NCBI GenBank assembly: GCA_964344415.1 | Contig: CAYFMS010000002.1 | Coordinates: forward strand, 64,142-128,141 | Length of the DNA stretch: 64,000 nucleotides | Source: an uncultured Gammaproteobacteria bacterium | GTDB lineage: Bacteria; Patescibacteriota; Patescibacteriia; UBA9934 | Direction of reading: 5' to 3' | Part shown: piece by piece, positions 1,475 through 44,563 of the stretch | Numbering within the stretch: position 1 is the stretch's first letter | Layout of the letters: every line of letters begins with the position of its first letter | The notes under the pieces: generated by a model | The model's database searches: none | The model's input: the letters and a program-made list of their open reading frames with translations, nothing else | What the model was told of the DNA's origin: nothing | Translations under genes and position numbers: made by a program

Positions 1475-3455
1475 ATATTGTGACAGATTCGTCATGCACG
1501 GCAAACCAATCATCGGCATTTTGTTTTGCATCTTCAAAGATTTTATCCGAATTCCACCAATAGTCATTCAAAACAAAGTACAGAGTTTCTGCTCCGGTTA
1601 ATGCATGCGCCTCGTCTATAACTGCCCGACTCGGCGCCTCGTCCACCATACGCAAATACAAATGATACAGTTCACCACCCGTCGGGATAGGGTAGTAAAA
1701 TATATCTCCTGAATAGTATTTTTTAAATCCAAATTCCTGAAGAGCAGCCGCCGAAACAGCCTGGTTCGCAAGAACGGCAATATCGGCATCACCAGCATGC
1801 TCATGAATGGCCCAAACAGCATCAATATCAGCCATGCTCACATTAAAACCGCGCTCGCGCACAAAGCCGTCATCACGAGGATACGCCGTATATGCATTGC
1901 CGGAAAAGAAAATCATGATAAGCAGTAGTATTGGGATCCCGGCTCGATTGATATATTTGGCCGAAAAAAGCTGCGCAATAACTGGAAGGGCAAAGATATG
2001 CATTAAAATAAGCAATCGATTTGTATAATTTAATCGCTCATACTCAACAAGAAAACTGAACTCAATGCTCGTAGACAGTATGTGATAATTCACGGTAAGA
2101 ATTCCAATAAAAATGGCATAGATCATCCAAGTTCTCTTCCTTGTTCGTATGATATGTATGCATCCACAAATGAAGAGGGCTGCAAGAATGAACCATAGAT
2201 TATTTTGGAAGAAGTAAAAAAGGTCGAGCCAAGCATCAAAATGATTTTTGAAATCAATTTGTGCATTTGGGAGCATGAAAAGCTGTTTGAAATTTGTATG
2301 TATTTCCAAATGCGAAAGAGATGCTTGTAATAAGAAAATGGTAGGTATTGATACAGCGCCGGCAAGCGATGTTAATGTGATGAGCGCCGTTGATGCAGCA
2401 TTGCTTTGCAGGCTCGCGAAGCTCAGAAGTGTTAAGAAAATAAGAGCTGGAATACCAGATAGAGGATGGATGATTGCCGAAGTGATGGCTAGCATCCATA
2501 AAATCCAGAGCGGTATATCGCGATGTTCAATGTAGCGGAATGATAAAAATGCTATCGACGCTGCGAAGGCGTAGGAAAGAGCTTGTGGTGTTGTGCTGAT
2601 AAAGGCTCCGATGGGTAGAAGAAATAAAATGAGTAATTTTGCTGAATGTTTGAAGCTCAAAAATACCGACGCAGTCATAATCATCATTCCAAGAATCGGT
2701 ACAAATACTGTGTTAAAAGCCTGAATTGAAATGCCAAAATTGAGTCGAGCAATAAGTTCAATGGCATAATCGCCAATATAATAAAATGGCTTCGGGTCAA
2801 TACTTCCAAAATTCACAATATGTTCCAACGTCGCCTTGTGAATGAATGGATCGAATCCATACCCAATGCTGTATGCTGCCCAAGCAAGTCCTGCTGCAGA
2901 AATGACGGTCAGCCCAGTTAATATGCCCCCAAGAGGACTTTTCTTATAAAGAAGTAATGTACTTGCGCCGGCAGCGAGAGCGATTCCAAGCAAAATGATA
3001 GGGTCAATAAATGACCATGGAGATCTAACCGCATCAGTAATATCAACTTGTAAAATCGTCGCCCACCATGCAGTCAATCCAATAATTCCTACAAGAAATA
3101 CTGCCCAATGCTTTATAACTATGCGTGGAATAGAGAATTTGATAGATGGGGCTTCAAAAAAGAGTGCGGGTAATAGAAGTCCTGCAATAATTAAAAGCAA
3201 TGTCCACGTCGTTACAGGTAGAGTGTAATAGATGATGCTTCCAGCGACAGAAAATGTGCAGACGGTGAACAAAAATCCCAAAATAAGATGATACTTCTTG
3301 AAAAGGGTATGTCCATATGCATATGACATGATGAGCGTGAAAAGGGCAAAAACAAAAAATCCAATCATGTTTATTTGGAAAAATAGAGCATTCGCCAAAC
3401 CGACAAGCGCAGAAAAGACAGCTAATTGTTTTATAAATAATGGTTGAATTCTCAT
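1458..3455 (-). CDS. multi-pass membrane protein, GT-C-fold glycosyltransferase-like (family unassigned), with a C-terminal soluble domain
   Basis: 665 aa with about 12-14 hydrophobic helices over 500 aa, then a roughly 150-aa soluble C-terminal domain ('DYWW' region). Sits in the glycosylation gene neighbourhood. Confidence 0.5.
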   Translation of the reverse strand: MRIQPLFIKQLAVFSALVGLANALFFQINMIGFFVFALFTLIMSYAYGHTLFKKYHLILGFLFTVCTFSVAGSIIYYTLPVTTWTLLLIIAGLLLPALFFEAPSIKFSIPRIVIKHWAVFLVGIIGLTAWWATILQVDITDAVRSPWSFIDPIILLGIALAAGASTLLLYKKSPLGGILTGLTVISAAGLAWAAYSIGYGFDPFIHKATLEHIVNFGSIDPKPFYYIGDYAIELIARLNFGISIQAFNTVFVPILGMMIMTASVFLSFKHSAKLLILFLLPIGAFISTTPQALSYAFAASIAFLSFRYIEHRDIPLWILWMLAITSAIIHPLSGIPALIFLTLLSFASLQSNAASTALITLTSLAGAVSIPTIFLLQASLSHLEIHTNFKQLFMLPNAQIDFKNHFDAWLDLFYFFQNNLWFILAALFICGCIHIIRTRKRTWMIYAIFIGILTVNYHILSTSIEFSFLVEYERLNYTNRLLILMHIFALPVIAQLFSAKYINRAGIPILLLIMIFFSGNAYTAYPRDDGFVRERGFNVSMADIDAVWAIHEHAGDADIAVLANQAVSAAALQEFGFKKYYSGDIFYYPIPTGGELYHLYLRMVDEAPSRAVIDEAHALTGAETLYFVLNDYWWNSDKIFEDAKQNADDWFAVHDESVTIFIYYP

Positions 3456-3479
3456 GTTTTTTGCTATGATATCTACATT

Positions 3480-4052
3480 ATGTCATATAAGCATCTTGAA
3501 AAGCTATTGCCGCATGATTATCTTGTTAGGCCTTTTCTTTTCTTTATTCCAAAATGGGTCAGGCCGAATCATCTTACTGTACTTCGCTTTCTTTTGACAC
3601 CAGTTTGTATTTGGCTATTTGTAATAGGGAATTACAAAGTGGGAATTCCGGTTTTTATTTTTGCATCGCTGACAGATTTGCTCGATGGTTCACTCGCGCG
3701 CATACGCAAACAGGTAACGGCTTGGGGGGTTTTCTATGATCCGGTCGCGGATAAATTACTTATCGCATCGGTTCTGATTGTGGCAGCTATTCAATATTTG
3801 AATATTTGGGTATTACTCGGGCTTATTGTCATGGAGCTTTCAATTTTGATTGGGGGACTTATGCGGAATAAAAAAGAGTTGCCAGCAGCGAATTTATGGG
3901 GTAAATGGAAGATGGTAATGGAATTCGTTGCATTAACCATACTGCTTATTGCAATCGCGACTCAGTTCTTAGCTCTTATTCCTGTCGCGACGGCGCTATT
4001 TATCATCGCCATTCTTCTTGGTGTGATTTCTCTGTTAACATATAGCTTGTGA
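3480..4052 (+). CDS. CDP-alcohol phosphatidyltransferase family protein
   Basis: Motif D-x2-D-G-x2-A-R-x8-G-x3-D-x3-D is present ('DLLDGSLARIRKQVTAWGVFYDPVADKLL'). The protein is multi-TM. The ORF track starts at TTG 3444; the ATG at 3480 is preferred. Confidence 0.75.
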   Translation: MSYKHLEKLLPHDYLVRPFLFFIPKWVRPNHLTVLRFLLTPVCIWLFVIGNYKVGIPVFIFASLTDLLDGSLARIRKQVTAWGVFYDPVADKLLIASVLIVAAIQYLNIWVLLGLIVMELSILIGGLMRNKKELPAANLWGKWKMVMEFVALTILLIAIATQFLALIPVATALFIIAILLGVISLLTYSL

Positions 4053-5632
4053 AAAAGCTTTCAATTTTTCTTCTGATCATCGGGGTGCTCATTTATTTTA
4101 TCTCCACATTGTGGCTTTCTTTTGATGTTCCACTTTTTAATTCTCCCGATGAGAATGCAGCATTTTTTGCAGCGTATTCATTTGCAGAAGGTGATTTGCC
4201 GAGGGTGAAGGAAATGGCGAATTGGGCAGTTGGTGGTGCTATTCATCCACGCAGTATGATTGCGGTAGAGGATTATATTGTGCCGGGGAGTTTCCTTGGT
4301 TTACCGATTTATTTTGGGGCGCTTGGGTCTATATTCGGCGCTTGGGTTCTGAAAATATTGACGCCTCTTCTCTTTATTCTATCCGGTTTAGCATTTTATA
4401 AACTTGTAAGAGTATTCGCCGGATCGAAAGAAATAGCGCTCTATTCGACGATTTTCTATATATGCCATCCGGCCATGTGGTATTACGCTGGCAGGACAAT
4501 GATGCATAATGTTCCATTTATTTCTTTTGCCGTTTTCAGTGCATTCTTTCTCTATGTGAAGCCTATATCGCGCAGATGGATGAATTGGCTTGCGGCCGGG
4601 TGCTTTTTAGGAATATCAATCAGCATGCGCAGTTCTGAAATTATCTGGCTCATTCCTCTCTTCGCCGCTTTTGTGGGTATGCTGATGTGGAGAGATGGAT
4701 GGAGGCATGCGCCAATATTTCTGTTCGGAATTATTCTCGCAATCATCCCAATACTCCTTCACAATCAATCATTGTACGGATCGGTACTTGAAACGGGCTA
4801 TACAATTGACTTCAATTATCCAAGGTTGAACCTTGATGTGGATAACCCCGACTCAAGGTTAAACCTTGATGTGGATAAATCGAGCTTTTTGCCATTTGGA
4901 TTCCATGAAAAGGCAATTCTGCGTCATATTTGGCAATATGGATTTCTGCTTTATCCTTGGATGACCGTCTTTGGTGCAGCTGGGATAGTGATTGCCCTAT
5001 TTAGGCCCAAGAATAAAAAATGGTTTTACTTAGCAATTGCGACACTTTTCGTATCAGCTTGGCTCGCCATTCTCTACGGTAGCTGGGTTATACATGACAA
5101 TCCGGATCCAAATGCGATTACAATAGGAAATTCATACGCGAGATATTGGATTCCAATTTTTACACTTCTTGCGCCATTTGCTGGACTCGCCATTTCCATC
5201 ATGCTCAACCATCTAAAAAAATGGAAGTTATGGGCCGCGTCTGCATGTATGGCATGTATCATTCTTTTATCCAGCTTTGTTGTTTTTGGCGGGGAGGATG
5301 GATTCATTCAAACACGCCAGCGGCTTCTTGCTGAGCAGGAAATGATTGATTCAATTCTTGAAAAAACAGAATCTGATAGCATTATTATCACGGATTTTTC
5401 AGATAAACATCTTTTCCCAGCAAGGCGCATCGTTCATCCACTTCGCGACGAGCATGTTTATGAGAATCTAGGTAATCTATTTAATCAAGCGCCACTTTAT
5501 TATATTGGAATCACATTCCCTGATAGCGATCTAGATTTTTTGAGAGAGAATAGACTGACGCCTCATGGAATAGATATTGAACTTATTGAGCAGTATCATC
5601 ATCAATCTTTATATAAATTCATTGAACAATGA
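4049..5632 (+). CDS. GT-C-fold membrane glycosyltransferase (PMT/ArnT-like, GT39/GT83-type)
   Basis: 527 aa, multi-TM, with a 'SPDENA' acidic motif in the first extracytoplasmic loop after TM1 and a C-terminal soluble domain. Contains the in-frame 33-bp tandem repeat listed below. Confidence 0.6.
   Translation: MKKLSIFLLIIGVLIYFISTLWLSFDVPLFNSPDENAAFFAAYSFAEGDLPRVKEMANWAVGGAIHPRSMIAVEDYIVPGSFLGLPIYFGALGSIFGAWVLKILTPLLFILSGLAFYKLVRVFAGSKEIALYSTIFYICHPAMWYYAGRTMMHNVPFISFAVFSAFFLYVKPISRRWMNWLAAGCFLGISISMRSSEIIWLIPLFAAFVGMLMWRDGWRHAPIFLFGIILAIIPILLHNQSLYGSVLETGYTIDFNYPRLNLDVDNPDSRLNLDVDKSSFLPFGFHEKAILRHIWQYGFLLYPWMTVFGAAGIVIALFRPKNKKWFYLAIATLFVSAWLAILYGSWVIHDNPDPNAITIGNSYARYWIPIFTLLAPFAGLAISIMLNHLKKWKLWAASACMACIILLSSFVVFGGEDGFIQTRQRLLAEQEMIDSILEKTESDSIIITDFSDKHLFPARRIVHPLRDEHVYENLGNLFNQAPLYYIGITFPDSDLDFLRENRLTPHGIDIELIEQYHHQSLYKFIEQ
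4823..4886 (+). repeat. in-frame tandem repeat (about 1.8 copies of a 33-bp unit) inside the GT-C gene, encoding 'RLNLDVDNPDS RLNLDVDKSS'
   Basis: 'aaggttgaaccttgatgtggataaccccgactc' is followed by 'aaggttaaaccttgatgtggataaa'. Each unit carries a 13-bp odd-centred palindrome AAGGTT(G/A)AACCTT. Confidence 0.85.
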
Positions 5633-8345: not shown

Positions 8346-9191
8346 ATGAAGGTATTAATTACGGGCGCCCATGGAAATCTCGGGCAGGATTTGATGCAGG
8401 TTTTTGAGCAGGCTGGTCATGAAGTGCTTGCGACAGATAAAGCGGATCTTGACATCACAAATCTTGTGGCAGTTCTCGATTATGTCCAGAATCAGAAGCC
8501 AGACCTGATTATAAATTCGGCTGCATATAATGCTGTCGATAATGTTGAGGATGATGAATACTATCCTCTTGCTTTCTCAATCAATGCTGGTGGGCCGAGG
8601 AATTTAGCAAATGCCGCGAAGCAGGAGAATATTCCTATCATTCATTTCAGCACGGATTATGTTTTTGACGGGGCGAAGAAGGAGGGGTATGCCGAGGATG
8701 ATGCCATGCATCCGATTTCAAAATATGGCCAGACAAAGGCGGCGGGTGAGCGTTTTGTTCGTGAAAGTGGCGCAAAGTACTATATTTGCCGGCTTTCAAA
8801 GATTTTTGGAAAACCCGGTAAGAGCGAGGTGTCTAAAAAGAGCTTTGTTCAGGTGATGCTCGATCTTGCTAAGGAAAAAGAGTATTTGGAAGTCGTTGAT
8901 GAAGAAATTGGAATGCCGACATATACGGCAGACATTGCCGCGGCGGTTTTGAAGCTTACGAGAGGGGATTTCGAGGCAGGTGTATATCATTTGGTAAATG
9001 AAGGTCCGGGAGTAACTTGGTTTGAATTTGCCAAGGAGATTTTTGAAATTGCGCAGGTAGATATTGAAATAAGGCCTGTACCTTCCTATGATCGGCCGGC
9101 TGATCGGCCAAAATTCGCCGAGCTGAAAAATACAAAATTCCCAAAATTACGCTCGCGCAAAGATGCACTGCGAGATTTCCTAAGCTCCTAA
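8346..9191 (+). CDS. rmlD: dTDP-4-dehydrorhamnose reductase
   Basis: N-terminal Rossmann 'MKVLITGAHGNLG', SDR fold, 281 aa, immediately after rmlC. Confidence 0.85.
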   Translation: MKVLITGAHGNLGQDLMQVFEQAGHEVLATDKADLDITNLVAVLDYVQNQKPDLIINSAAYNAVDNVEDDEYYPLAFSINAGGPRNLANAAKQENIPIIHFSTDYVFDGAKKEGYAEDDAMHPISKYGQTKAAGERFVRESGAKYYICRLSKIFGKPGKSEVSKKSFVQVMLDLAKEKEYLEVVDEEIGMPTYTADIAAAVLKLTRGDFEAGVYHLVNEGPGVTWFEFAKEIFEIAQVDIEIRPVPSYDRPADRPKFAELKNTKFPKLRSRKDALRDFLSS

Positions 9192-9225
9192 GTCCGACTT
9201 AAATCAATGGTTTTAAGTCCGATTT
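9189..9225. repeat. pair of AAGTC(C)GACTT palindromes (13-bp TAAGTCCGACTTA and degenerate AAGTCCGATTT), centres 25 bp apart
   Basis: Read directly; same motif and spacing as the pair at 9583-9620. Confidence 0.7.
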
Positions 9226-9235
9226 AGATCATAAA

Positions 9236-9262
9236 TAAAAAAAACTCCCGACGGGCGGGAGT
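9236..9262 (-). terminator. rho-independent terminator for the small minus-strand gene
   Basis: On the minus strand: CTCCCG-CCCGT-CGGGAG hairpin followed by T8. Confidence 0.6.
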
Positions 9263-9286
9263 GTTGAGGGCGATTCGTGTCGAGGA

Positions 9287-9502
9287 CTAGGTTTGTGTCT
9301 TAGCAGGTCCGCATTTGATGACCAGAAGCATGGCGCCGCTCATTGCGTATGCGGAGAGCGCCATGTAAATCAGCGGCATATGCGCAGTAGAGCTTCCGTT
9401 CAGAAAAAAGATGATTGTGAGTAGTTTTCCGACTGCATACAATGCTGCGGCAAATGCGAGGGCGGCGGTTTCCTGCTTTATCACTTCTTCTGGTGTATTC
9501 AT
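9287..9502 (-). CDS. small membrane protein (72 aa, 2 TM), hypothetical
   Basis: Strong RBS AAGGAG 6 nt before the ATG (complement of 9500-9502). Own sigma70-like promoter and own terminator. Flanked on both sides by palindrome pairs. Confidence 0.55.
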   Translation of the reverse strand: MNTPEEVIKQETAALAFAAALYAVGKLLTIIFFLNGSSTAHMPLIYMALSAYAMSGAMLLVIKCGPAKTQT

Positions 9503-9533
9503 GCACGACTCCTTAGCTAAATGTGCTCGATGG

Positions 9534-9562
9534 ATACTAAGACATTTTAACGAAAATGTCAA
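9534..9562 (-). promoter_or_regulatory. sigma70-like promoter TTGACA-N17-TAGTAT for the small membrane protein gene
   Basis: Read on the minus strand; spacing is 17 nt. Confidence 0.45.
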
Positions 9563-9582
9563 TGCTTCGTGCTTGGTAAAAA

Positions 9583-9620
9583 TTAAGTCCGACTTAAAAC
9601 AGCAGATTAAAGTCGGACTT
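9583..9620. promoter_or_regulatory. pair of palindromes TTAAGTCCGACTTAA and AAGTCGGACTT, centres 25 bp apart, just upstream of the -35
   Basis: 15-bp perfect odd-centred palindrome plus an 11-bp palindrome; the position suggests an operator or activator site. Confidence 0.5.
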
Positions 9621-9631
9621 AATTTGTGGAT

Positions 9632-9658
9632 AAAAAAACCGCGCTTTGTTCAGCGCGG
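9632..9658 (-). terminator. rho-independent terminator for the 9685..10269 gene
   Basis: On the minus strand: CCGCGCT-GAACAA-AGCGCGG hairpin followed by T7. Confidence 0.55.
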
Positions 9659-9684
9659 TGTACGTACGAGATGGGTCTGTGAGA

Positions 9685-10269
9685 TCACTTTTCGGGAAGT
9701 GACCTACCCTGATTCGTGATCTGTGGCCTGGGCACTTCCGATACCAGCCCCTCTTTCGACGGATCGAGCTGCGATGTGTCGATTTCGAGCTTCAGCCCGC
9801 CGCGGATGACTTCGAATCTCACTTGCTCGGATTCCGCATGGGTGTCCGAGGCTGATTCGAGAGAAAGCGCGCGTAGCCCATTCGCTTCGATGTATGTGGT
9901 GATGAACCACTCAATCATTTTCTTGTCTGCATCGATTGGAAAGCATTTGAGGAATACTCTGCCATGACCCTGTCGAATGACTTCGATAGTCCAGCTTGCG
10001 GCCTCGATCTCCGCCTCCACGATATCACCATCGATGGGGATGAACTCATGTACCGGCCTTGCAGAGCGCAATGTTTTTTCGGCAATCCCTCCGAACAGGA
10101 TGGGCAGGGTCATGATCAAGATGTCCCTGATTGATACGGTGCCTCCGGACATGATGAGTCTGGTAAGCAAAGCGCCGAAAAGTACAGAATAGATGCCAAT
10201 CTGTGCAAGTAACAGACACCAAAGCATTACCAACCTAGACTCTTCAATAAGTCGCATTTTCACCTCCAA
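9685..10269 (-). CDS. membrane protein, hypothetical (N-terminal 2-3 TM plus a soluble C-terminal domain; possibly DUF421/YetF-like); GC-rich relative to its neighbours
   Basis: 194 aa with a GC-rich third codon position, unlike the flanking genes. Confidence 0.45.
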   Translation of the reverse strand: MEVKMRLIEESRLVMLWCLLLAQIGIYSVLFGALLTRLIMSGGTVSIRDILIMTLPILFGGIAEKTLRSARPVHEFIPIDGDIVEAEIEAASWTIEVIRQGHGRVFLKCFPIDADKKMIEWFITTYIEANGLRALSLESASDTHAESEQVRFEVIRGGLKLEIDTSQLDPSKEGLVSEVPRPQITNQGRSLPEK

Positions 10270-10317
10270 AAGTTAGCGACGATTCAATGTATGTCGAAAA
10301 TGTGCAAAAGTCAATAC

Positions 10318-11634
10318 CTATTTTGTAATTTCGATGGAGAAAATGCCATAAGCTTCACCGCGATTTCCAAGGAAATAAAGCGTTTTTCCAGATGCAGAAA
10401 CCCACATATCCTCGACAGATACATTTTCCACAATGGTGTCAGTGTCTCGATCTTCAGCGAGTAGGAATGTATCAAATGCTTCAATGCTATTCTCGTCGGC
10501 AATAAAGAACCTTGCACCGCTTGGGTGGAATGCAACATCATGAATACGATCAGATTGCCGTGTTAAAAACTCGATGGTATTGGTCGACCGGTTGTAGAGA
10601 TTTAATTCGATCTCATCCGAATACAAAATCAGCTCACCGCGGGAAAGTATGTCAAAATCTGTGGCATCGGCTTTAAATCGAATAGGAGTTTCGGCACGTA
10701 AGTCGATTGTGTAGAGCTGACCATGATTATTTGAAAGCAAAATAAAGTTGTTAATGAGCGCCTCGATCTGATAGTCACCGCGCGGCAAAATCGTAATAAA
10801 ATTAGACCCATCATTTGTATCTCTAATAAGCGTCAAATTTCCGCCCTGTATTTCTGTACGCAACAATTCACTGTCGTTTAGGCGCAATAGAACATCGTCG
10901 GCCAGGGTCTCGATAGTGCGGTCGTCAATATTCATTTCACTGGTAGAATCCTCGTCATCAAGGTAGAGAAAATGATCAATGCTTGGATGCCAGCTTGCAG
11001 ATATGATTTGATCCGGCATTTCTTCAGGGAGTACTAACTCTTTCCCGTCATCGGTGTAGACGGCAATAGTATTCGATCCCAGAACAGATATATGATTTCC
11101 ATCCGCGGACCAGTCGATAGCGATATCTTCTGGCGCCATTGCCAGTCTGCCGATATTCTTCACATCTTGATTTTTCAATTTCATGAGCCAGACATCGGTC
11201 CAGCCGGCCTCTTGTGTGCTGTAAACAATATGCGTTCCCTTCGGGTGTACGGAGAGGGCGCCCGGCGGAGTCGTTATGAGTTCGGGTTCATTGTCGAGTA
11301 GAAGAAGCGCGTCTTGAATATATGTTGTGATGCCTTCTTGAATATCGACCTTGCCCGTCCAAGGATGATAATTGTCTTTTGCTAGCTCGACGATATATTC
11401 GCCGGACGCGAGCCGCTTAAACACTTGCTGTGTCTGTTCATCTGTATAGCTTCCATTCAAAAAAATCATTGCATTTCTTGGTGCAGAAGTGATGGAGAGG
11501 CCGCCAGATCGAATGACTTGCCCCGCTTTTAAATTGTATCGATAGCCAGCCGTGTATAAAACAAGGAGTGGCGCTGCGATAAAAAAGAAAAGGGAAAAGA
11601 TAATAAAAAGCGCCGTGCGAAATCGTAAACTCAT
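10318..11634 (-). CDS. membrane-anchored periplasmic protein with a PEGA-like domain and a TolB-like beta-propeller
   Basis: N-terminal TM, PEGA-type motif 'YIVELAKDNYHPWTGKV', and repeated propeller-like 'DWSADGNHISV' and 'SWHPSIDHFLY' blades. Start taken at the internal ATG 'MSLRF' (complement of 11632-11634). Confidence 0.5.
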   Translation of the reverse strand: MSLRFRTALFIIFSLFFFIAAPLLVLYTAGYRYNLKAGQVIRSGGLSITSAPRNAMIFLNGSYTDEQTQQVFKRLASGEYIVELAKDNYHPWTGKVDIQEGITTYIQDALLLLDNEPELITTPPGALSVHPKGTHIVYSTQEAGWTDVWLMKLKNQDVKNIGRLAMAPEDIAIDWSADGNHISVLGSNTIAVYTDDGKELVLPEEMPDQIISASWHPSIDHFLYLDDEDSTSEMNIDDRTIETLADDVLLRLNDSELLRTEIQGGNLTLIRDTNDGSNFITILPRGDYQIEALINNFILLSNNHGQLYTIDLRAETPIRFKADATDFDILSRGELILYSDEIELNLYNRSTNTIEFLTRQSDRIHDVAFHPSGARFFIADENSIEAFDTFLLAEDRDTDTIVENVSVEDMWVSASGKTLYFLGNRGEAYGIFSIEITK

Positions 11635-29394: not shown

Positions 29395-29520
29395 CGAATT
29401 TACGGATAATACTGATATGCGGATTGACGGCTACGAAGTAAGTAGTCGTATTGCTTAGATCCTTCGACAGGCTCAGGATTTCGAATGGGTACACGAAGTC
29501 CGACTTTCTTTTCGTCATAC
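29395..29520. repeat. mosaic intergenic repeat, inverted orientation (modules G, C and D and a single AAGTCCGACTT copy)
   Basis: 'cttagatccttcgacaggctcaggatttcgaa' is the reverse complement of module C at 59085 and 60335. 'cgaagtaagtagtcg' is the reverse complement of module G. Confidence 0.7.
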
Positions 29521-30190: not shown

Positions 30191-30257
30191 TGTTGAAGTG
30201 ATTATTATGTTGAATGCATGATTTTATCCACAGATATTTGACAAAAAAATGTGTTCA

Positions 30258-43394: not shown

Positions 43395-43444
43395 CCCGTG
43401 AACCCACGAGATCTGATCTACTTATCCACAGACAACGTCCGACT

Positions 43445-44563
43445 TTGAATTATATGCTAACAATAGGGATCGATGTACATCCACTTCTGCGCAAGCAATA
43501 TACCGGCACAGAACGGTACCTTTTCGAGTTGATTAATGCGATGATGGCTGATAGTTATCCACAGTCAACGTCCGACGTTGAATTTGTTTTATATGCATCG
43601 AGTCCGGTGGATTCACTTAGGGAATTGCCAAAAAACTGGAGTTGGGAAATTGTAAAATGGAAAGGTCCTGGATACACTCATCTCGGACTTTCAAGGCATT
43701 TTATGCAAAATCCGCCGGATATTCTTTTTGTGCCGGCTCATGAAATCCCACTATTTACCGGAAAAGTTAAAATCGTGACGACAATTCATGACCTGGCTTT
43801 TTATCATATTCCGCAGGCATACTCTTGGTTCAATGTGCTGCGGCAAAAATGGTCTCTTCATCGTAGTGTGCGAAAAGCAGATCGTATTATCGCGATTTCT
43901 CAAAAAACAAAGAATGACATCCTAAAACATACAAAATGTGATGACTACAAAATAGATATTGTACATTTGGGAAACTCAATTCAAAAACCTACCGATAATT
44001 CTATTCAAAATACATTGAACCATTATCATCTCGATGAGCAGGGCTATTTTTTCTATATTGGAAGACTTGAAGCAAAGAAGAATATCGCTATGCTTCTGGA
44101 TGCATTTGAAATATATGCGAAGAATGGCGGGGAAAAGGATTTAGTGCTGGCTGGAAAATGGGGGTATGGATCCGAGAATATAAAACAAAAAATTGAAGTG
44201 TCTAAATTCAAGAATAAAATACGAGTTCTGGGATTTATTCCGCAAGAAGAATTATCGGCGCTCTATGCTGGATCGGAAGCATTTGTATTTCCATCTCTTT
44301 ATGAGGGATTTGGCATGCCAATTCTTGAGGCACTCGCATGCGGGACGAATGTTTTAGCATCGGATATAGCTATTCACAGAGAAATCGGTGGCGATATAAT
44401 ACAATATGCAAAGGTGGATGATGCGGGCGAATGGGCCGTGAAGATGGCTGCAATGAAAAGGGACGTATCAAATACAGAGACGGCGGGTCATTTGAAGAAA
44501 TTTACATGGGATGCGGCTGCGAATAAGACGATGAGCATTCTTCGAGAAACATGGACGAATTAA
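43445..44563 (+). CDS. glycosyltransferase family 1 (GT4)
   Basis: 'EGFGMPILEALACGTNVLASD'. The real start is probably the ATG at 43454. Confidence 0.8.
   Translation: MNYMLTIGIDVHPLLRKQYTGTERYLFELINAMMADSYPQSTSDVEFVLYASSPVDSLRELPKNWSWEIVKWKGPGYTHLGLSRHFMQNPPDILFVPAHEIPLFTGKVKIVTTIHDLAFYHIPQAYSWFNVLRQKWSLHRSVRKADRIIAISQKTKNDILKHTKCDDYKIDIVHLGNSIQKPTDNSIQNTLNHYHLDEQGYFFYIGRLEAKKNIAMLLDAFEIYAKNGGEKDLVLAGKWGYGSENIKQKIEVSKFKNKIRVLGFIPQEELSALYAGSEAFVFPSLYEGFGMPILEALACGTNVLASDIAIHREIGGDIIQYAKVDDAGEWAVKMAAMKRDVSNTETAGHLKKFTWDAAANKTMSILRETWTN

Follow-up and report, generated by a model that had tools for sequence, protein, structure and literature searches.

In the window, a 64,000-nucleotide stretch of contig CAYFMS010000002.1 (assembly GCA_964344415.1, positions 64,142 to 128,141), two pairs of short palindromes bracket a small membrane-protein gene. 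The analysis indicated, with a probability of about 75%, that each of these pairs is a copy of a repetitive extragenic palindromic (REP) doublet, similar to the REP doublets forming hairpins (REPINs) or the bacterial interspersed mosaic elements (BIMEs), that it belongs to a family associated with REP-associated tyrosine transposases (RAYTs), and that the pairs are not switches for the small gene. Each pair is one element of about 50 nt, which consists of a TTATCCACA box and two inverted hairpin units. The same family is present in other genomes, its hairpin stems covary, and its apex, in some lineages together with the box, is linked to RAYT genes. For the window, this explanation turns the bracketing palindromes into repeat copies and removes a tempting regulatory story.

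Anatomy of the two elements

The original prediction had described two pairs of AAGTC(C/G)GACTT palindromes. Four AAGTC(C/G)GA(C/T)TT palindromes in two pairs were found both by reading the sequence and with a pattern search. The left pair comprises the cores AAGTCCGACTT at 9190-9200 and AAGTCCGATTT at 9215-9225, the latter with one C>T change. The right pair comprises AAGTCCGACTT at 9585-9595 and AAGTCGGACTT at 9610-9620 (both on the plus strand; at the latter site the minus strand reads AAGTCCGACTT). The centre-to-centre distance inside each pair is 25 bp, as had been noted, and the offset between the two pairs is 395 bp. The extended palindromes TTAAGTCCGACTTAA (9583-9597) and TAAGTCCGACTTA (9189-9201) were also confirmed, and so was an exact solo AAGTCCGACTT at 29496-29506. 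This intergenic solo core lacks both a partner at a distance of 25 bp and an extended stem, and is probably a relic unit. When up to one mismatch was allowed, the motif had seven matches in the window versus 0.73 expected, and none of 100 shuffles reached seven.

The right copy (9580..9633, minus strand) was delimited by repeat analysis, folding, its box and alignments. On the minus strand the TTATCCACA box (9633-9625) is followed by a unit AAGTCCGACTT, an 8-nt loop, and the unit that has its plus-strand core at 9585-9595. The pair is an inverted repeat, the 19-nt arms of which (9580-9598/9607-9625) are 95% complementary and 8 nt apart. The centre bases of its two units, C and G, are complementary, and the predicted fold as single-stranded DNA had an energy of -15.5 kcal/mol (z = -8.3). 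The element sits between the terminator of a gene encoding a 190-aa protein and the -35 box of the small gene. The left copy (9188..9238, also on the minus strand and in the same orientation) was delimited by repeat analysis, folding and alignment. It is also an inverted repeat, but a degenerate one, with 16-nt arms that are 88% complementary, the centre bases C and C, and a predicted single-stranded fold of -6.7 kcal/mol (z = -3.2). Its box has decayed to TTATTTATG (9238-9230), which is four transitions away from TTATCCACA, and the stop codon TAA (9189-9191) of the neighbouring gene rfbD falls within the element. The right copy is intact, and the left copy is the older, decayed one.

Taken together, the two pairs form a 55-nt direct repeat with 75% identity, box included. 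Because the box is on the same side of both copies, their orientation is direct and not inverted, and a reading as terminal inverted repeats is ruled out by the direct nature of the 55-nt similarity. The identical 25-bp spacing is explained by common descent of the two copies; it is inherited from the element and is not a designed operator geometry. The single units are palindromes of 15-19 nt, that is, hairpin-forming imperfect palindromes like those of REPs, and the inverted doublet with a short spacer that is typical of REPs and REPINs was found in the right pair as well as in the set from other genomes described below. Each copy lies in non-coding DNA just beyond an intrinsic terminator.

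The same module in other genomes

The pattern AARTCSGAYTT-N14-AARTCSGAYTT was scanned over the GTDB representatives, using one genome per species, and 97 loci were found. A naive chance expectation of about four was rejected as too low, since ordinary terminators and arrays in Candidatus Parabeggiatoa match this pattern, too. Many of the A/T-rich matches (AAATCSGATTT followed by a T-run) were indeed ordinary terminators or unrelated arrays. As the degenerate pattern picks up such sequences, the counts were restricted to AAGTC-type matches, which comprise 49 distinct elements. About 28 of these 49 were in metagenome-assembled genomes (MAGs) labelled Patescibacteria, Nomurabacteria, Giovannonibacteria, Saccharibacteria, Parcubacteria or Paceibacterota, five further ones were in MAGs labelled "bacterium", and five were in CAYWYQ01, the nearest relative of the window organism with the same type of repeat. 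The host is a small-genome lineage related to such Patescibacteria-type MAGs. In 2.9 million viral contigs the pair pattern had no match, and thus a phage origin is without support. The Candidatus Parabeggiatoa contigs (L048, L087, L035 and L059) carry dense AAATCSGATTT arrays with periods of about 25, 63 and 160 nt, which represent an unrelated family.

Within single genomes near-identical copies were found, the spacer included (four in JAHJJO01, three in JAMCXQ01 and three in JAHJSY01), and CAYWYQ01 contains at least five doublets. Between genomes only the 11-nt core is common, and the flanking 3-5 nt differ yet stay complementary. In 39 of the 49 elements the two units have complementary centre bases, showing that they are mutually inverted. 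For 108 distinct units, the fractions of Watson-Crick pairs at stem positions 1-4 were 0.82, 0.67, 0.70 and 0.50, versus 0.44, 0.25, 0.29 and 0.26 in controls with shuffled partners. None of 500 shuffles reached the observed values, and all four pair types were present in this set. Such covariation of the stem is expected for a folded hairpin, rather than for a site that is recognized as a duplex.

About 19 of the 49 elements are located in-frame within long open reading frames (ORFs), and the affected genes include those for MurD, the gamma subunit of ATP synthase, an IscS-like and a ComF-like protein. In one MurD gene (L047:6879-6914) the doublet is an exact 15-residue insertion in comparison to the MurD encoded in the window, and in the gene for ATP synthase gamma the doublet was found at two different places (L068:7347-7382 and L098:5975-6010). 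None of the six frames of the hairpin core contains a stop codon, while the TAA-flanked variant of the window lineage has stops in two of three frames. Further Patescibacteria-type loci with an in-frame module, which adds about 15 residues, are L004, L010, L013, L017, L023, L024, L040, L064 and L080. In one MAG, two contigs end right after a copy with A9 and T9 runs (L006:3588-3639 and L026:2030-2081), which fits a repeat that breaks assemblies as well as a hairpin resembling a bidirectional terminator.

Linkage of the apex to RAYT genes

Repeat hairpins on the flanks of a RAYT gene are the defining REP-RAYT arrangement in Proteobacteria (PMC3116915; PMC5581495; bioRxiv 10.1101/2021.07.10.451892). 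At two loci of one MAG (L069 and L076) a gene with HUH and catalytic-tyrosine motifs has cores on its flanks. Relatives were also detected with tblastn near other cores. In L072 the stop codon of such a gene is 12 nt before the doublet, and three AGGTCSGACCT hairpins are located upstream; in L051 the core is 19 nt from the gene start; and in L017 and L078 the gene is within 3-5 kb of the core. All five proteins tested passed the cutoff of PF01797 (Y1_Tnp), and the two proteins of L069 also passed that of NF047646 (REP-associated tyrosine transposase), while the other tested proteins were below the latter. A profile of the five proteins had its best match in the PDB with TnpA-REP of E. coli (4ER8, E = 7.5e-5), ahead of the ISDra2 and IS200 transposases.

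As an independent test set, 80 metagenomic RAYT loci were fetched with the five-protein profile. The apex AAGTCNGACTT occurred 35 times within 250 nt of the RAYT gene ends (37.7 kb in total), versus about 0.04 expected, and six times in the remaining 278 kb of these loci. It was present on both sides of the gene at 14 of the 80 loci; 11 of these belong to the 16 proteins that are most closely related to that of L072. The centre base and the lower stem vary from locus to locus. The RAYT-flanking hairpins in L107, L109 (on both sides) and L110 have TTATCC(A/C)CA next to them, and its relative orientation is that seen in the window. Copies of the core also occur inside the matched RAYT coding region (L117:4559, L119:4187, L120:1216, L166:557 and L179:483), and these intragenic copies share locus-specific stems with the flanking copies.

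By analogy to the REP/RAYT and IS200/IS605 systems, the following mechanism can be proposed for the element, which consists of the 5'-located TTATCCACA box and two inverted hairpin units with the apex AAGT-CSG-ACTT, a short stem and a 25-bp period. The units would fold as hairpins in single-stranded DNA, and the hairpin and the adjacent motif would be recognized by a Y1/HUH enzyme. The elements could be copied in trans by a RAYT (an IS200-like Y1/HUH tyrosine transposase) whose gene is at another site of the genome, and the copies would persist where the harm is small. No RAYT was found in the about 71 kb of the source genome that could be reached, and mobilisation in the source genome is therefore only inferred by this analogy: a RAYT would be present there now, or would have been present once, and would have moved the window copies. 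Back-up termination, an influence on the promoter of the small gene and DnaA binding are possible secondary effects.

Several observations weigh against this explanation. Part of the excess of 97 loci is spurious, because terminator hairpins and AAATCSGATTT repeats also fit the degenerate pattern. In L017 and L078 the core does not directly flank the RAYT-like gene, and the RAYT-like proteins of the loci labelled Patescibacteria had scores of 24-32 bits versus the NCBIfam RAYT cutoff of 80. Neither a RAYT gene nor a remnant was detected with tblastn and hmmsearch --max in the 64-kb window, its 6-kb extension (L106) and 25 kb of CAYWYQ01. The number of copies in the window is low: besides the two doublets, there are a single solo core and four variant units of box plus hairpin, and two of these four are intragenic. 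Classical REPs are present in hundreds of copies per genome. In addition, several copies in the window lineage and its relative (L042, L088 and L084) are in promoter regions, and a secondary regulatory use of copies may exist.

In the collection of papers that was searched, there was none that ties RAYTs, REPINs or miniature inverted-repeat transposable elements (MITEs) to Patescibacteria or other lineages of the candidate phyla radiation, and none with the core sequence in a relevant context. The results thus point to a family of the REP/RAYT type with the conserved apex AAGTCNGACTT in small genomes of the Patescibacteria type. This family is tolerated in-frame in essential genes. If confirmed genome-wide, it would bring very reduced genomes into the range of the REPIN-RAYT system. 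It could then also help in strain typing and, as a simple marker, in annotation, where it would draw attention to contig breaks, apparent operators and short insertions that keep the frame. The in-frame spread in other genomes and the motif at the hairpin foot, which resembles a DnaA box, are more interesting leads than the locus itself.

Box and variant units in the window

The TTATCCACA box occurs seven times in the window versus 0.56 expected, an about 12-fold enrichment. It is located on the minus strand at 4837, 4870, 9625 and 11667, and on the plus strand at 30224, 43422 and 43555. Five of the seven boxes directly precede a palindromic hairpin (9633-9625, 43422, 43555, 4878-4870 and 4845-4837), and the box thus appears to be part of the repeat unit. 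Its sequence is identical to the consensus DnaA box, and judged by this identity the foot of the hairpin might tie the repeats to DnaA binding.

Two variant units with the same box-plus-hairpin architecture are found near 43 kb on the plus strand. The unit at 43422..43448 consists of TTATCCACA, GACA and ACGTCCGACTT, and the unit at 43555..43581 of TTATCCACA, a G and the perfect 17-nt palindrome TCAACGTCCGACGTTGA. In both of them TTATCCACA is followed by (A/T)CAACGTCCGAC(T/G)TTGA. They are 133 bp apart and directly follow an rsmH-like gene. The unit at 43555 falls within a long ORF that was called from a TTG at 43445, and the true start of this ORF may be further downstream.

Two additional units are in tandem at 4826..4878 on the minus strand. 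They are 33 nt long, each consists of TTATCCACA and TCAAGGTT(Y)AACCTTG(A), and they are in-frame in a gene for a PMT_2 glycosyltransferase (4049-5632). This tandem 33-bp repeat, which on the minus strand can also be written as TTATCCACA plus TCAAGGTTYAACCTTG, is translated into RLNLDVD(N/K) twice, and the repeat region in the PMT_2 gene varies among relatives.

The small gene and its neighbourhood

The small gene (9287..9502, minus strand) is outside the repeats. It had been described as encoding a 72-aa protein with two transmembrane segments (two-TM). The ORF is real, but it encodes 71 aa plus the stop codon, and the two hydrophobic segments were identified by eye. The gene has its own promoter, ribosome binding site and terminator, in accordance with the original prediction. 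A consensus scan found a sigma-70-like promoter (TTGACA-N17-TAGTAT, 9534..9562, minus strand, 10 of 12 matches) and an intrinsic terminator (9244..9262, minus strand), the minus-strand T-run of which precedes the left element. The ribosome binding site AAGGAG was read directly at 9514-9509, 6 nt before the ATG at 9502. Upstream of the small gene and on the same strand is the gene for the 190-aa protein (9685..10257), which has an N-terminal hydrophobic region. Its intrinsic terminator (9638..9659, minus strand; consensus scan) has a T-run that leads directly into the TTATCCACA box of the right element. On the other side of the small gene, rfbD (8346..9191, plus strand), encoding dTDP-4-dehydrorhamnose reductase (RmlD_sub_bind, 1.6e-82), is convergent with this block.

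Among 5.8 billion proteins, the 71-aa protein matched only itself and the 190-aa protein had no homologue other than itself; neither of them matched a Pfam, PHROG or NCBIfam family. As both are ORFans without homologues or a family, gene function is of no use as a clue. The small gene has a single context, because every contig that carries the small protein shows the same neighbours; the source itself is a metagenomic contig of 768 kb. In the closest relatives sampled that share the surrounding gene order, a gene for a PEGA-domain protein directly faces rfbD in convergent orientation; the two genes are separated by 234 bp in L101 and overlap in L103 (window 9190-10318 compared to L101:11350-11584 and L103:11321-11329). 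In these two loci, which had been found via the PEGA protein, neither of the ORFans nor a core-like sequence is present within 12-21 kb. The direct neighbourhood of the two genes in the relatives shows that the 1.1-kb stretch 9190-10318 is a lineage-specific insertion, which has the order 190-aa gene, terminator and element, followed by promoter, 71-aa gene, terminator and element. The small gene is most likely an unrelated lineage-specific ORFan that is between two copies by happenstance. A search of 8900-10400 against Rfam at a permissive threshold yielded sub-threshold chance matches only.

Alternative explanations for the palindrome pairs

A regulatory interpretation along the lines of the original prediction would make the pairs operators for a dimeric or tetrameric regulator of the small gene, possibly with looping between them, or, in a weaker version, REP copies that were co-opted for this purpose. 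The position of the right pair just upstream of the -35 box (centres near -63 and -88 relative to the predicted start) would be suitable, and the size of the palindromic units is typical of dimer binding. In CAYWYQ01 copies are in divergent promoter regions as well, one of them upstream of another small two-TM ORF. However, the same two-unit module is present at unrelated positions elsewhere: it is in-frame within housekeeping genes of many genomes, it flanks transposase genes, and its variable stems covary. With a spacing of 25 bp, the two units face different sides of the helix, and the downstream pair comes after a terminator and overlaps with the end of rfbD at its stop codon. No regulator gene was found in the Pfam tables within about 10 kb on either side, and in the proposed comparison with relatives the orthologous loci contained neither of the two ORFan genes and none of the sites. 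With intragenic copies, no regulator gene nearby and no orthologous conservation, a pair of transcription factor operators is not supported, and this interpretation is very unlikely. It is only a little easier to believe that the hairpins are signals selected by the host and kept in place, i.e., back-up or bidirectional terminators, stabilisers of mRNA 3'-ends, or DnaA sites via TTATCCACA. Both copies do directly follow terminators, AATTTTTA comes after the right doublet when the minus strand is read, copies in JAHJJO01 have flanking A-runs and T-runs like bidirectional terminators, and the enriched box equals the consensus DnaA box. Yet no T-run follows the left copy, the box of which is mutated, and host signals would leave the genome-specific identical copies, the in-frame copies and the linkage of the apex to RAYT genes unexplained. 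REPs are, moreover, known to take on such roles secondarily, which agrees with the assignment of the pairs to a REP-type family.

The second proposal of the original prediction, a minimal mobile cassette, fared better in part. The repeats are indeed of a mobile type, since the same apex flanks RAYT genes, but the ends are not inverted repeats, because the copies are direct, and each pair is a complete element in itself. No evidence for a past movement of the intervening segment as a cassette was found. In a modified form, the two box-hairpin elements on the same strand would be the ends of a passenger cassette of about 450 bp that a RAYT can mobilise, with the small gene in the place of the RAYT. 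The topology is like that at RAYT loci, e.g., in L109, where the coding strand has one box-hairpin before the gene and one after it, as it has around the small ORF in the window, and the whole block is a lineage-specific insertion of ORFans. If true, this would be a route by which a tiny genome poor in transposons could acquire and shuffle small ORFan genes, moved in trans. Against it stand the single occurrence of the small protein and its context, and the failure to find a second copy, an empty site or a target duplication. Furthermore, the left end is decayed, the gene for the 190-aa ORFan has no element on its PEGA side, and the two doublets in L042, which are 223 bp apart without a gene between them, show that paired copies occur without cargo. 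Neither a RAYT nor a remnant was detected between the two window elements with tblastn and hmmsearch --max. This form of a cassette is unlikely, although it has somewhat more in its favour than operators or host signals. A MITE or a composite cassette was rejected in view of the direct repeats, the lack of a target duplication by inspection, and the single context without homologues. Gene cassettes of an integron with attC sites were rejected as well: the Pfam tables for about 71 kb contain no integrase, the doublets lack the R''/R' core sites (RYYYAAC/GTTRRRY), and both ORFs have promoter-like sites and terminators.

Comparison with known systems

The REP, BIME and REPIN elements of E. coli and Pseudomonas share with the present family the short imperfect hairpin palindromes, the inverted doublets with a short spacer and the presence of several copies per genome. 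REP/RAYT systems have a single Y1/HUH transposase gene with these hairpins on its flanks, an arrangement that was found here in other genomes and metagenomes, and the best structural relative of the linked transposases is TnpA-REP of E. coli (4ER8). The REPINs of Pseudomonas have a length of about 100 nt and the motif at the foot of E. coli REPs is GTAG (PMC3116915, PMC5581495, bioRxiv 10.1101/2021.07.10.451892), whereas the doublet described here has about 45-55 nt and lacks GTAG. A conserved motif 5' of the hairpin foot is nevertheless an analogous feature, as TTATCC(A/C)CA is found at this position in the window, L107, L109 and L110. Other differences are that the conserved part is the apex AAGTCNGACTT, which many lineages have in common, with lower stems that vary from genome to genome, and that many copies in other Patescibacteria are intragenic and in-frame, in contrast to the classical "extragenic" REPs. 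In addition, copy numbers are low, the Patescibacteria-linked proteins are below the curated RAYT cutoff, and no RAYT is present in the about 71 kb of the source genome.

The ends of IS200/IS605 elements are similar with respect to the enzyme superfamily (PF01797) and to the same-strand hairpins on both sides of the transposase gene, and by analogy folded single strands with sequence-variable stems could be recognized in both cases. In contrast to IS200/IS605, the window elements are doublets without a transposase, and the profile fits RAYT (4ER8) better than the TnpA proteins of ISDra2 and IS200. The Rickettsia palindromic elements (RPEs) are MITE-like, have a length of 100-150 bp, are found in-frame in genes and are not known to have a transposase partner. 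The addition of about 15 in-frame residues to housekeeping proteins such as MurD and ATP synthase gamma in other Patescibacteria is reminiscent of RPEs; the two window copies differ from them in being intergenic, and the TAA-flanked variant of the window lineage has stops in two of three frames. The arrangement of two ORFans in the same direction, each followed by an imperfect palindromic element that can fold as single-stranded DNA, resembles gene cassettes with integron attC sites. It differs in that the reachable sequence has no integrase, that the doublets have no R''/R' GTTRRRY core sites, that each ORF has its own promoter and terminator, and that the window element also occurs within genes and on the flanks of RAYT genes.

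The nearest relative with the same repeat type

CAYWYQ01 has a nucleotide identity of 80% with the window across the rsmH-like gene and contains the same TTAAGTCSGACTTAA variant, which shows that it is related to the window organism. It carries copies of the TTAAGTCSGACTTAA type at unrelated intergenic sites. The label "uncultured Gammaproteobacteria" of its contigs (L009, L042, L084 and L088) looks wrong, or the window lineage has been mis-binned. In L084 a methyltransferase-like gene (...LSPT*) takes its final codons and its TAA stop from an element (3312-3347). About 70 nt downstream of this element is the small two-TM ORF (3416-3646, about 76 aa), which has its own terminator and shows no visible similarity to the small protein of the window.

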